DNA of 64,000 nt, from the NCBI GenBank assembly GCA_964549615.1, contig CAZJVP010000030.1:1-64000 (forward strand), written 5' to 3'. Position 1 is the stretch's first letter. The number at the start of each line of letters is the position of its first letter. Positions 6,980 to 61,897 of the stretch are shown piece by piece. Made by a program: the position numbers and the translations under genes. The notes under the pieces were generated by a model that worked only from the letters and a program-made list of their open reading frames with translations, was not told the origin of the DNA and ran no database searches. This DNA is from an uncultured Thermococci archaeon. GTDB taxonomy: Archaea > CAYQAE01 > CAYVLA01.

Positions 6980-7221
6980 GCGGCGACGGTTGGACCGCTC
7001 AGAGAAAAAGCTGACGTTCTAGAACTCAAGGATCGTGTCCTCAGTGGCTCCTTGCGGTTTCCTCGTAGGGAAGGTTGCGCCCAAAGGGGAATCTGGATGG
7101 CGTCCACGGCCGCTGCAAGTCCTCAGCATCGGGAACCCGAGGCGCTGAAGAAGACCACTAGAGCATCGCCGACCGCGGATGGCGCCATCTTGGTGCGCAG
7201 ACTTCCGACGTCTACGACGAA

Positions 7222-7337
7222 CGGGCCCGTAGGGATTTGAACCCCAGACCTATCCCCGAAGGCGAGATCCTTCCATGGGTTAAGAGCCCATCGCTGTTGA
7301 TTCCCAAGCGGGAACTACCAGACTAAGCTACGGGCCC
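7222..7337 (-). tRNA. tRNA-Lys(CTT) with two non-canonical introns (7296-7314 in the D-arm; 7252-7274 at the anticodon-stem/variable-loop junction)
   Basis: GGGCCCGTAGCTTAGTCTGGTAG[TTCCCGCTTGGGAATCAAC]AGCGATGGGCTCTTAACCCAT[GGAAGGATCTCGCCTTCGGGGAT]AGGTCTGGGGTTCAAATCCCTACGGGCCCG. The spliced product is a 74-nt cloverleaf with no encoded CCA. Confidence 0.93.
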
Positions 7338-7360
7338 GAGAGCCTTTCCCCCTGAAAAAA

Positions 7361-8206: not shown

Positions 8207-8641
8207 ATGAAGCCGAAGAACTTGACCTTCCGCTACCTTGAGCACACGGCGGACATAGGCGTCGAGGTGGTCGCGCCAAGCCTTCCGGCCGCCTTCTCCG
8301 AGGCCGGGGTCGCCCTTTTCGGAATCATGACCGACATCTCGGGCTTCAAGCCGGCCCACCCAGTCGGGATCACGGCAACCGGCCACGATATGAAGTCGCT
8401 GCTTTACGCGTGGCTCGAGGAGCTGATCTACATCTTCGACACCTCCCGGATGGTCTTCGTCAGGATAGACGTTGAGAAGCTCTCGCTCGATCCCCCGTCC
8501 ATCGAGGCGACGGGCTGGGGCGAGGCTTTCGATCCGGCACGGCATGAGCCGAGGACTGGCGTCAAGGCGGTGACTTATCACCGAATGAAACTTGACGAGA
8601 GGGAGGGCCGCTGCATTCTCACGTACTTCGTCGACATATAA
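8207..8641 (+). CDS. Archease (RtcB activator)
   Basis: FRYLEHTADIG, WLEELIY, VKAVTYH, C-terminal VDI. Confidence 0.93.
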   Translation: MKPKNLTFRYLEHTADIGVEVVAPSLPAAFSEAGVALFGIMTDISGFKPAHPVGITATGHDMKSLLYAWLEELIYIFDTSRMVFVRIDVEKLSLDPPSIEATGWGEAFDPARHEPRTGVKAVTYHRMKLDEREGRCILTYFVDI

Positions 8642-11605: not shown

Positions 11606-13051
11606 ATGCACAGGGACCTGAAGAAATTGTCGGAAGAGATCTACGAGGTTCCCCTGGGTTATAAGCCCGGAATGAAGGTGCCCGGAAGGATCTATGCAGA
11701 TGAGACCCTATTCAAACAAATCGAGGCTGGCACCATCGATCAGGTGGCCAACGTCGCCTGCCTGCCGGGCATACAGAGGTACTCGATGGCCATGCCCGAT
11801 GCTCACTTGGGTTACGGCTTCGCCATAGGCGGTGTTGCCGCGTTTGATATGGAGGAGGGGGTATTGAGTCCAGGCGGCATCGGCTACGACATCAACTGCG
11901 GGGTCAGGCTGCTCAGGACGAATCTTGATCGCTCGTCGGTGGAGCCGAAGCTGGAGGCCCTCATAGAAGCCGCCTTCAGGAATGTTCCCTCGGGCCTGGG
12001 GAGCGAAGGGAAGATCAAGCTCTCCCAAAGGGAGATCGACGAGGTCCTGGAGGAGGGCGCCGCATGGGCAGTGAGGCACGGATTCGGGTGGGAGCGCGAC
12101 CTAGAATATATGGAGGAGAAGGGAAGGCTGCCCGAAGCCGATGCGTCGCAGGTGAGCAGCAAAGCCAAGCAGCGCGGCATACCGCAGCTGGGAAGCCTCG
12201 GGTCCGGAAACCATTTCCTGGAGATACAGTACGTGGACAAGATCTACGATGAGGATGCAGCGAAAGTGATGGGCATAGACCGCGTCAACCAGGTCACGAC
12301 GATGATCCACACCGGCTCTCGAGGATGCGGCCACCAGATCTGCTCCGACTACCTGCGGGTGATGGAGTCCGCGGCGAGGAAATACGGCATATCCCTGCCG
12401 GACAGGGAGCTTGCATGTGCCCCGGTCGAGTCGCCGGAGGGACGGTCGTACTTCTCGGCGATGTGCGCGGGAGCAAACTTCGCCTGGGGAAACAGGCAGA
12501 TGATCATGCACTGGGTCCGGGAGTCGTTCGAGAAGGTCTTGGGACAGAGCGCGGAGAGCCTCGAGATGGAGCTGATCTACGATGTTGCCCACAACATCGG
12601 GAAGAAGGAGAGGCACGTCGTGGATGGCCGGAAGGTCGAGCTCTGCGTGCATCGAAAGGGTGCGACTAGGAGCTTCGGCCCCGGCAGCGAGGCGATCCCA
12701 TCCGACTACGCCAGAATAGGGCAACCGGTGATCATCCCCGGGGACATGGGGACCGCCTCCTACCTCCTGGTAGGCACCGAGAGGGCCATGGACGAGACCT
12801 TCGGCTCCACCTGCCACGGCGCTGGCAGATCGCTCAGCCGGGCCGAGGCAAAGAGGAGGTTCTACGGCGAGAAGGTGAGAAGCGATCTCAGGGCAAGAGG
12901 GATAATCGTCAGGGCGGCGAGCATGCCCGTGGTCGCCGAGGAGGCCCCCGGCGCCTACAAGGACATAGATAGGGTTGTCGAGGTCTGCCACAGGGCGGGC
13001 ATAAGCAGGAAGGTAGCTAGGCTGCGGCCTATGGCTGTGGCCAAGGGGTAA
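11606..13051 (+). CDS. rtcB: RNA-splicing ligase RtcB
   Basis: [56 protein letters not shown]; no intein. Confidence 0.97.
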
Positions 13052-58549: not shown

Positions 58550-58567
58550 AGACCAATTTTTATTCTC
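58550..58567 (+). promoter_or_regulatory. Putative TATA promoter of carB
   Basis: AGACCAATTTTTATTCTC, followed by SD GGAGGA at 58605-58610 and TTG at 58620. Confidence 0.5.
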
Positions 58568-58619
58568 ATTTTCTAGCGCACCGCCAGAACGACCGAGATC
58601 CCACGGAGGAGCAACAGCC

Positions 58620-61600
58620 TTGCCCAAGAGAGAGGATATCCACAAGATCCTCGTCATCGGATCCGGGCCGATTGTGATCGGACAAGCCGCCGAATAGGGA
58701 TTTCCCTCGGAATCGACTACTCCGGTTCACAGGCCTGCAGATCACTGCGCGAGGAGGGATACCATGTAGTCCTAGTGAACTCGAACCCAGCGACGATAAT
58801 GACGGACACCGACATGGCCGACGTTGTGTACATGGAACCGCTGGTGCCGGATATCGTCACGAAGATAATCGAAAAAGAGAGGCCCGACGGACTGCTGCCG
58901 ACGATGGGCGGCCAGACCGGGCTAAACCTTGCGGCCCAGCTCGGGATGCTGGGCGTGCTGGAGAAGTACGACGTCGAGCTTCTGGGAACGCCGCTTGAGA
59001 CGATCCAAGCAGCGGAGGACCGAGACAAGTTCAGGGCGTTGATGCTGGAGATAAACGAGGCGATACCGAGGAGCCGCGCGGTGGCCACCGTGGAGGAGGC
59101 CGTCTTCACGGCACAAGAGATCGGGTACCCTGTGATCGTGCGTCCCGCCTACACGCTCGGCGGAACCGGAGGGGGCATGGCCTATAATGAGACCGAGCTG
59201 CGGAAGATAGTGGATCGCGGCCTGCGCTCAAGCATAGTCAACCAGGTTCTCGTCGAACAGTCGGTGATCGGCTGGCAGGAGATAGAGTACGAAGTCATGC
59301 GCGACGCCGCCGACAACTGCAACATAGTGTGCTCCATGGAGAACGTCGATCCCATGGGCATACACACCGGCGACAGCATCGTCGTCGCGCCCGTTCAGAC
59401 GCTGAGCGACCCGGATCATCAGAAGCTTAGGACGGCCTCCATCAAGATAATCCGGGCGCTGAAGATCCAGGGCGGTTGCAACATACAATTCGCAATGAAC
59501 AAGGACACCGGGGAGTACTACGTCATCGAGGTCAACCCCAGGGTCTCCAGAAGTTCCGCCCTGGCCTCCAAGGCAACAGGTTACCCGATAGCAAGGATCG
59601 CCGCGAAGATTGCGGTGGGGATGACCCTTGACGAGATACCAAACAGGGTCACTCGCACGACGCCGGCCAGTTTCGAGCCGGCACTGGACTACATAGCGGT
59701 GAAGATCCCCAGGTGGCCGTTCGACAAGTTCCGCACCGCCGAGCGCCAGATCGGGACCCAAATGAAGGGAACGGGCGAGGTCATGAGCCTGGCGCGGACC
59801 TTCGAGGAGGCCTTCCAGAAAGCGATAAGAAGTCTGGACATCGGCAGGGCCGGCTTCGGCTGCGAGGCAAAGCAGGCCAACTTCGCCAAGGCGACGGAAG
59901 AGGAGCTTCTTGAGGAGCTGGCACGGCCGACGGATCAGAGGATCTTCTACATCCACGAGGCACTGCGGAGGGGATACTCGCCTGAGAGGATCTACCAGCT
60001 GACCAAGATCGACAGGTGGTTCCTGTACAAGCTCAAGAACCTTCTGCAGATCGAAAGGAGCTTGGTCCGACAGTCAGGAAAGAACACGATCTCACGGTCT
60101 CTGCTTCTCCGATCCAAACGGGCTGGCTTCTCAGACGCGCAGATTGCCTATGCCTTGGGCAAACGCGAGGACGAGGTCAGGAAGATGAGGAAGGAGAAGG
60201 GCGTACTACCATCCTACAAGATGGTTGATACCTGTGCGGCCGAGTTCGAGGCCAAGACGCCCTACTACTACTCGACGTACGAACCGAACTCAGACAAGGC
60301 CCTGATGACGACCGAAAGCCCCAAGAAGAAGGTCCTCATCATCGGCGGCGGACCGATAAGGATAGGCCAGGGCATAGAGTTCGACTACTGCACCGTCCAC
60401 GCCGTGACCACGCTGAAGGAGGAGGGACTGGAGGCAATAGTCATCAACAACAATCCTGAAACGGTCTCCACCGATTTCGACATCTCGGACAAGCTCTTCT
60501 TCGAGCCGCTCACATTTGAGGACGTCATGAACGTAGTTGACCTGGAGAAGCCCTGGGGGGTGATCGTCCAGTTCGGCGGCCAGACCCCCATAAACCTCGC
60601 CTCAAGGCTCGCGAAGGCGGGAGTCAACATCCTAGGCACGCCGGCCGAAAGCATTGACAGGGCCGAGGACCGCAGGTCGTTCACGAAGCTCCTAAGCAAG
60701 CTGAAGATCCCTCAAGCACCGTACGGCACGGCCATGGATCGCAAGGGCGCTCTCAGGGTCGCCCGGAGGATCGGGTTCCCCGTCCTGGTCAGGCCAAGCT
60801 TCGTCTTGGGCGGACGAGCGATGGAAATAGTCCACGACGAAGCGGAACTCAAAGAGTATGTGGACATAGCAGTATCCGTGTCGCCCGAGCACCCCATACT
60901 CATTGACAGATTCCTAGACAACGCGATCGAGCTGGACGTAGACGCCGTTGCCGACGGACGGGATGTCTTCATAGGCGCGATCATGGAGCACATAGAACAG
61001 GCAGGCGTCCACTCGGGCGACGCGGCAATGGTCATCCCAACGTGCTCGTTGGACAAGGAGACCATCGCCACGGTCGAGGAGTACACGAAGGCAATTGCCC
61101 TGGAGCTAAAGGTCGTCGGCCTGATTAACGTACAATACGCGGTGAGGAACGGGGTGGTCTATGTGCTGGAAGCAAACCCCAGGGCGTCCAGAACGATACC
61201 CTACGTGGCAAAGACGATGGGGATCCCGCTCGCCAAGATCGCGACCAAGTTGATGGTGGGCCATACGCTGAGGGAGCTTGGCCTAGTCGGCCGCCGGGAG
61301 ATCAAACACTTCTCTATCAAGGAATCTGTCTTCCCCTTCATCAAGCTCCCGGGAGTGGATCCCAAGTTAGGGCCCGAGATGAAGTCGACCGGCGAGGTCA
61401 TGGGGATCGATGATGACTTCGGCCTGGCGTTCTTCAAATCGCAGGTCGCGGCCGGCATGGCTCTTCCGACGTCGGGCAGGGTGCTGATCTCGGTCAAGAA
61501 GGAGGACTTCGCCGAGATCCCGGAGATCGCCAAGAAGTTCCACGAGCTTGGATTCGAGCTTTTGGCGACCGACGGCACGGCCGCAGCGATCCAGGCGAAG

Positions 61601-61897
61601 TACCCCAACATACCAATCAGGGTCGTTCGCAAGATATCCGAAGGGAGCACCGAGATACTAGAGATGATGTGGAGGCGCGAGATCGACATGATCATAAACA
61701 CGCCGACCAAGGGCGGCAGTGCCTTCAGGGATGGCTACAAAATCAGACGCCAAAGCGTCGACCTGTGCATCCCGTACGTGACCACCCTGGCCGGAGCTCG
61801 CGCCTCGGTTAGTGCCATCGAGAAGACCAAGAAAGGGGCTATCCATGTCGAGTCTCTGGCATCCTACCTGAAGGGGGTCCAGACCGTAGCGACCTAG
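58620..61897 (+). CDS. carB: Carbamoyl-phosphate synthase large subunit, join(58620..58695,58713..61897), 1086 aa after removing a 17-nt intron
   Basis: Exon 1 [25 protein letters not shown] plus exon 2 (F)[19 protein letters not shown]; duplicated ATP-grasp halves and MGS domain; spliced length 3261 nt = 1087 codons. Confidence 0.93.
58696..58712 (+). other. Candidate 17-nt BHB-type mRNA intron in carB
   Basis: AGCCG-CCGA-AT^A-GGGATTTCCC-TCGG-AA^T-CGACT: 4-bp helix CCGA/TCGG flanked by two 3-nt bulges; excision gives GAA TTC GAC (E-F-D). Confidence 0.85.

Follow-up and report, generated by a model that had tools for sequence, protein, structure and literature searches.

The carB gene and its predicted splicing structure

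The window analyzed here, a 64,000-nt stretch of DNA from an uncultured Thermococci archaeon (GCA_964549615.1, contig CAZJVP010000030.1, positions 1 to 64,000 of the forward strand), carries carB, a core enzyme gene of arginine and pyrimidine synthesis, whose reading frame is interrupted by 17 nt that resemble a bulge-helix-bulge (BHB) intron. Translation of 58620-58697 on the + strand ends in GQAAE followed by a stop, so that the unspliced reading terminates at the TAG at 58695-58697, while 58715-61897 forms an open frame of 1060 aa that begins DYSGSQAC and is out of frame with the first part. The features of the interrupted gene are as follows.

58620..58695, + strand: carB exon 1, 76 nt, comprising by translation a TTG start, 25 codons and the first base (T) of a split Phe codon
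58696..58712, + strand: predicted BHB intron, 17 nt, comprising the third base of bulge 1, a GGG-AUUU-CCC hairpin, the 3' central-helix strand TCGG and bases 1 and 2 of bulge 2
58713..61897, + strand: carB exon 2, 3185 nt, comprising by translation and Pfam the TC that completes the Phe codon, followed by 1060 codons and a stop
58674..58730, + strand: predicted splicing structure as a whole, from the RNAalifold consensus on an alignment of related sequences (A1, described below), with which the single-sequence minimum free energy (MFE) fold agrees

The Phe codon of the conserved motif GQAAEFDYSG is thus split, with T on the 5' side of the insert and TC on the 3' side. There is a single 17-nt excision that restores the motif, and no other choice of 17 nt does so. 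The joined exons (76 + 3185 = 3261 nt) amount to 1086 codons plus a stop; the exon 2 product contains the Pfam domains CPSase_L_D1, D2, D3 and MGS, and the related sequence GQGIEFDY is present in the second half of the CarB protein that it encodes. These results bear out an earlier sequence-only reading of the window with respect to the break in the gene (GQAAE, TAG, and resumption as DYSGSQAC), the coordinates of the insert, and the predicted splice product, in which E-F-D is restored within a 1086-aa CarB. That reading had further anticipated that annotation pipelines would miscall the gene, and open reading frame (ORF) calling indeed yields a broken gene, the longest ORF called at the locus beginning at GTG 58775.

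The insert and the exon sequence around it can be folded into a BHB. The outer helix, AGCCG/CGACT, forms four of five pairs with one mismatch (2+2 bp) and extends, in the RNAalifold consensus, into a 9-bp distal exon-exon helix. The central helix, CCGA/TCGG, is paired at 4/4 positions, and each of its strands is followed on the 3' side by a 3-nt bulge, ATA (58694-58696) and AAT (58711-58713), respectively. Unconstrained MFE folding of 58676-58730 with ViennaRNA gave a helix-bulge-helix-bulge-helix with a small inner hairpin, and RNAalifold recovered the same structure unaided from 14 related sequences. The outer helix, the central 4-bp helix and both bulges therefore lie where they had been placed from the sequence by inspection, and the unconstrained fold agrees with them. 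The inner hairpin had been drawn as GGGA-TT-TCCC, and this detail did not hold up: its 2-nt loop is sterically unlikely, and the programs instead fold GGG-AUUU-CCC, with 3 bp and a 4-nt loop. The inner helix measures 3-5 bp across sequences of the same type as that in the window.

If both 3-nt bulges are cut in silico behind their second base, exactly 58696-58712 is excised. This is the rule that had been applied in the sequence-only reading, and it matches the passages on cleavage in PMC2738675, where archaeal BHB cleavage is said to separate bulge residues 2 and 3. A strict-BHB scan of both strands of the whole genome returned 215 matches at length 17 among ~6.4 million positions, from which the chance of encountering a strict BHB at one fixed position and length is ~3e-5. 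At merely 17 nt the insert does not fit a self-splicing group I or II fold, and a search of the whole window against Rfam at the gathering threshold returned tRNA alone, with no match to a group I or II intron.

Genomic origin, relatives and competing explanations

The carB region was found in DNA contigs from three hot-spring metagenome runs. In run X1 it lies on an identical 35-kb contig that is probably the source of the assembly. A 151-nt contig from run X2, covering 58686-58836, is identical and spans the insert, and a 239-nt contig from run X3, which belongs to a different study, covers 58643-58881 with six substitutions and no gap. Confirmation that the insert is genomic had been called for at the outset, and the independent assemblies X2 and X3 provide it at the level of DNA. 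Because the insert is present in independent assemblies, we treat as refuted the idea that it is an assembly or sequencing artefact, a concern that arises with a metagenome-type assembly of 104 contigs; the insert further recurs in the genomes of two other species and in 11 metagenome contigs.

The phylum-level group to which the source organism belongs comprises five species genomes in total. A genome of the same genus (G001) has an 18-nt insert at the same carB site, which is in frame yet carries a TAG, and a genome of the same family (G002) has a 20-nt insert there that forms the two 3-nt bulges with the 4-bp helix between them. The fourth family member (G003) was outside the comparison, the 5' end of its carB being unassembled. 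In a genome of the sister family (G004), carB is uninterrupted and reads GQAAEFDYSG. Exon 1 aligns with residues 1-25 of this intron-less CarB at 80% identity, and exon 2 aligns from residue 27, the one missing residue being Phe; since exon 1 ends at residue 25 and exon 2 starts at residue 27, it is exactly the Phe of GQAAEFDYSG that is missing from the unspliced reading. The predicted spliced junction is identical to the junction of the intron-less alleles, and three distant archaea (G019, G036 and G038) likewise lack exactly the 17 nt.

Metagenome contigs were scanned with a structure-blind pattern consisting of the exon motifs separated by a gap of 9-39 nt. All 21 matches were interrupted carB genes (21/21). 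Eleven of them are of the window type, hereafter type I, with inserts of 18-21 nt and the central helix present in 11/11, and 20 of the 21 matches overall have all four central-helix pairs in the register that restores the frame. Alignment A1 comprises 14 type-I sequences, 10 of them distinct. Across A1 the BHB elements are invariant, while the loops vary in length and sequence, and 96.3% of cells are paired. The fourth inner pair (alignment columns 29-36) is CG in four, GC in two, AU in one, UA in one and unpaired in two of the 10 distinct sequences, and its covariation score was reached by 0 of 500 shuffles. Third-codon positions varied at 1 of 10 paired sites (A-U to G-U) compared to 4 of 6 unpaired sites (Fisher p = 0.036). 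The comparison with relatives that had been proposed along with the intron thus produced both an intron-less allele with the exact predicted junction and same-site BHBs with a covarying pair.

Together with the structure, these data lead us to conclude, with a probability of roughly 0.85, that the insert at 58696-58712 in the sole carB of this genome is a genuine BHB mRNA intron. In the mechanism that we propose, exon 1 of the pre-mRNA would pair with exon 2, and both with the intron, leaving two 3-nt bulges with a 4-bp helix between them. The tRNA-splicing endonuclease EndA, of which the genome encodes two paralogs, would cut each bulge behind its second base, and RtcB, the presumed exon-joining enzyme, would join the exons together with archease. 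The Phe codon of GQAAEFDYSG would thereby be rebuilt, giving an mRNA for a 1086-aa CarB, while an mRNA that stays unspliced would yield a 25-residue peptide ending at the TAG and nothing more.

Several points weigh against this interpretation. Excision, i.e., cleavage and ligation in vivo, is something that we infer from DNA. The energy of the fold is not significant (z = -1.5, with 14 of 200 shuffles folding equally well in ViennaRNA), and the single-sequence z-scores obtained for the window, -0.5 to -1.5, leave the fold indistinguishable from shuffled sequences. Folding energy alone is unremarkable; it is the BHB geometry that carries the evidential weight. Covariation within the family amounts to one pair, all other pairs being invariant and hence uninformative either way, and the structure behind the synonymous-site test was itself predicted from the related sequences being compared, making the test supportive only. 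In the same-genus allele (G001) the central helix contains an A-G mismatch and forms 3/4 pairs, and the MFE fold of this allele does not form a BHB. If spliced, it needs an enzyme with a relaxed motif.

The insert could instead serve in translational recoding, with the ribosome hopping over the 17 nt or frameshifting at the TAG. In the bypass of T4 gene 60, matched take-off and landing codons allow translation to resume in the correct frame, and the layout at carB, with a stop directly after the Glu codon, a hairpin after the stop and a second GAA at 58710-58712, is superficially similar. However, after landing on the second GAA the ribosome would read on as TCG ACT..., which is not the frame of DYSG and leaves out the conserved Phe. 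Moreover, because the inserts measure 17, 18, 19, 20 and 21 nt, no single frameshift or read-through can serve them all; every one of the three frame classes is represented among these lengths, yet the BHB elements do not vary, and the feature that is conserved is the two-bulge motif rather than a take-off and landing pair. We therefore regard recoding as very unlikely. The view that carB is a pseudogene or split gene, in which a neutral or disabling insert has left CarB absent, bypassed or produced in truncated form from exon 2, we consider slightly less probable still. ORF calling does render the gene broken, and carA and carB are unlinked, but dN/dS stays near 0.1 both before and after the insert: among three species whose synonymous divergence is 0.4-0.64, the values are 0.03-0.13 for exon 1, with its 25 codons, and 0.09-0.125 for exon 2, indicating that both exons are under purifying selection. 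At least 10 distinct sequences from this lineage retain the interruption along with an open downstream frame, and a start at 58775 would remove the conserved glycine-rich N-terminus, which aligns to residues 1-46 of relatives. Furthermore, carB is a single copy in a genome with an estimated completeness of 99.5%, and carA is intact. That carB might be decaying while a second intact copy takes its place had been raised as a possible objection, and it is excluded by the single copy and the purifying selection.

A remaining alternative, improbable in our estimation although somewhat less so than recoding, is that the BHB is an EndA site for mRNA destruction or regulation without productive ligation, or that the insert is removed by another route. 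The portions of PMC7714728 that deal with EndA substrates describe cleavage of BHBs in rRNA precursors and in a Haloferax 5' untranslated region (5'UTR) as well, and for carB the joining of the exons is predicted from DNA. Yet the cut sites lie in the register in which ligation restores both motif and frame in four structurally different intron types, and a pure degradation signal would have no reason to keep such a register; RtcB and archease are also present. Splicing of a BHB intron consequently remains the reading that we prefer.

The features around the interrupted gene and the locus of its partner subunit are listed below. The A/T-rich box is a possible archaeal promoter, a suggestion that stems from its sequence.

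58557..58564, + strand: TATA-like, A/T-rich box, TTTTTATT, ~55 nt upstream of the carB start, read by eye
58605..58609, + strand: GGAGG, a Shine-Dalgarno-like motif 10 nt upstream of the TTG start, assigned by eye
contig C101:84059-84448, - strand: carA (small CPSase subunit), intact and unlinked from carB

A PAP2-family gene lies on one side of carB and a glutamyl-tRNA synthetase gene on the other. Pfam searches of the ORFs from 44203 to the window end, i.e., 14 kb upstream and 2 kb downstream of carB, detected no homing-endonuclease gene; these ORFs matched SecDF, H+-PPase, acetyl-CoA synthetase, tRNA methyltransferase, TatA/C, enolase, QPRTase, PAP2 and GluRS, or had no Pfam match. The intron sequence itself is single copy, no second occurrence being found in the genome.

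Inserts at the same boundary in other archaeal lineages

Other types of insert were found at the Glu|Phe boundary of carB, within one nucleotide, in other archaeal lineages. Besides type I, three types were distinguished among the metagenome contigs and metagenome-assembled genomes (MAGs).

Type II: CTGA...TCAG helix pair; a Nanoarchaeia MAG, a MAG labelled Methanosarcinales and 3 metagenome contigs
Type III: GCGG...CCGC, inner helix 8-9 bp; a Bathyarchaeota MAG and 4 metagenome contigs
Type IV: GCCG...CGGN, inner helix 4-11 bp; 3 metagenome contigs

These four structurally different BHB types, of 17 to 33 nt, each appear to be confined to their own carB clade, the clades consisting of records labelled Hadarchaeota, Nanoarchaeia-like, Bathyarchaeota and further lineages. 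Between types I and II, a synonymous exon site changes from GCC to GCT together with a change of its intron partner from G to A. A Promethearchaeota (Asgard) MAG (L110:290-367) has a 30-nt insert at the same boundary that forms 0/4 central pairs in the frame-restoring register and folds as a different, long hairpin, making it non-canonical. A tree was built from 86 columns and 55 of 58 rows, with L134, L140 and L146 left out on account of the shortness of their matches. In it, types I, II and III come out as one clade each, placed among lineages that lack the intron. The backbone of this tree is unresolved, and a shared origin of the four types is not decided by it.

The pattern used on genome contigs required a CAA glutamine codon, and the resulting census is thus a lower bound; it returned 60 matches, of which six were real and 54 were chance matches in unrelated, mostly bacterial DNA. 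One contig, L085, contains an N. Among 400 other archaeal genomes that were sampled, the N-terminal matches listed were contiguous except for those of the source family and one at a contig end. The carB of the MAG labelled Methanosarcinales (L081) is identical to metagenome contig L137 over the compared stretch and groups with the Nanoarchaeia type-II sequences, and for the latter reason this contig may be misbinned.

It is conceivable, though we advance this tentatively and at somewhat less than even odds, that the Glu|Phe boundary of GQAxEFDYSG is a pan-archaeal intron hot spot. If so, the intron would either predate the split of the major archaeal phyla or reflect site-specific gain of BHB introns, for which a possible route is a reversed EndA/RtcB reaction acting on near-palindromic exon sequence, the product of which is then copied into DNA. 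CarB production in many archaea would then depend on the tRNA-splicing machinery, and recurrence at one codon boundary across phyla would offer a concrete system for testing BHB intron gain.

The type-I exon ends that flank the insert (58690-58719 in the window), when joined, give an 8-base palindrome centered on the junction, as read by eye; the intron-less sister-family allele has no palindrome at its junction. A near-palindromic context in the exons may make it easier for a BHB to form, or for an intron to be gained, at this position.

Splicing machinery and relation to known BHB introns

The genome encodes the enzymes that the proposed splicing would draw on, two of them within the window.

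11741..13048, + strand: RtcB RNA-splicing ligase gene, uninterrupted (PF01139, E 1.8e-182, model positions 1-426, no stops)
8228..8638, + strand: gene for archease, the RtcB cofactor (PF01951, E 1.4e-40)
contig C88 (L012:1456-2637), - strand: EndA paralog of 393 aa with two endonuclease units
contig C90 (L013:1195-2406), - strand: EndA paralog of 403 aa with one clear unit and N- and C-terminal extensions

The layout of the 393-aa paralog is like that of the two-unit dimeric enzymes. Near the archease and RtcB genes lies a tRNA-Pro(TGG) gene with an intron of ~43 nt (7221-7338, - strand), which scored 44.5 bits against Rfam and was also identified by ARAGORN with introns allowed; default ARAGORN finds no tRNA in the window. 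The tRNA genes of this genome are interrupted unusually often: over the whole genome, ARAGORN with introns allowed reported only 25 tRNAs, 16 of them intron-bearing and some with implausibly long introns. Many further tRNAs probably escape detection through having several introns or non-canonical ones. Strict-BHB matches inside tRNA genes, with length left free, numbered 8 in 18 genes compared to 8.3 expected, which is not above chance, and tRNA introns at the canonical position alone were used as a check on geometry. The 18-nt intron of the genome's own tRNA-Gly(TCC) and the 21-nt intron of its tRNA-Leu(GAG) have, according to the same scanner, the same arrangement of bulges and helices as the carB insert. 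The cbf5 gene of this genome is uninterrupted over its TruB_N match, with no stop or break.

A genome-wide screen for mRNA introns, in which 30,781 strict-BHB matches were subjected to ORF-joining and coding-score tests, retained 2530 candidates compared to 2503-2541 in frame-shifted controls. Later versions gave 483 compared to 439-465 and 445 compared to 389-412, and the strictest set gave 32 compared to 30-36, its matches resembling ordinary adjacent genes. The screen lacks power, missing carB itself because exon 1 is short, and it says nothing on other introns.

The carB insert has its closest counterparts in introns that are already known. With pre-tRNA introns at 37/38 it has in common the hBHBh' geometry and the size class, and the enzymes are presumably the same. 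It differs from them in its mRNA host, in having no tRNA body for recognition, and in exon helices that are built from codons, on account of which synonymous sites would be constrained. In eukaryotic-type HAC1/XBP1 splicing, a short mRNA intron is removed by IRE1 and a tRNA-type ligase, with a change of frame and in response to stress; the proposed carB splicing would follow a similar logic of an endonuclease and a tRNA-type ligase, but with a different endonuclease.

A BHB intron is reportedly present in the cbf5 pre-mRNA of Desulfurococcales and Sulfolobales, the work being attributed to Watanabe 2002 and Yoshinari 2006. As far as the relevant sections of Yokobori 2009 (PMC2738675) describe it, the cbf5 intron resembles the carB insert in being a BHB within a coding sequence, in a predicted cut that separates bulge residues 2 and 3, in restoring the frame upon removal, and in its patchy distribution among relatives. 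The same sections call the cbf5 motifs unconventional and state that introns in other protein genes had been predicted but never confirmed. The carB insert differs from this case in its gene and lineage, in its strict canonical motif, in its length of 17 nt, and in that splicing is deduced. The intron in the 5'UTR of Haloferax volcanii HVO_1309, as presented in the corresponding part of PMC7714728, likewise belongs to an mRNA on which the archaeal splicing endonuclease acts. It lies in an untranslated leader, whereas the carB insert splits a codon, so that carB excision must be exact to the nucleotide.

Apart from the Haloferax 5'UTR case, the pertinent passage of the 2020 paper PMC7714728 gives cbf5 as the sole other mRNA BHB intron, and where a 2025 paper (PMC12397907) turns to pre-mRNA, the portion at hand cites the cbf5 papers alone. 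We found no description of a carB intron in the published full-text literature, supplements and subscription-only papers aside. A conserved, covarying micro-intron in carB would therefore be a second coding-region host of archaeal mRNA BHB introns and, at 17 nt within a codon, among the smallest workable introns. If it is spliced, tRNA-splicing enzymes can be essential for producing a metabolic enzyme, and the intron would explain truncated or frameshifted carB gene calls, which distort metabolic reconstructions.

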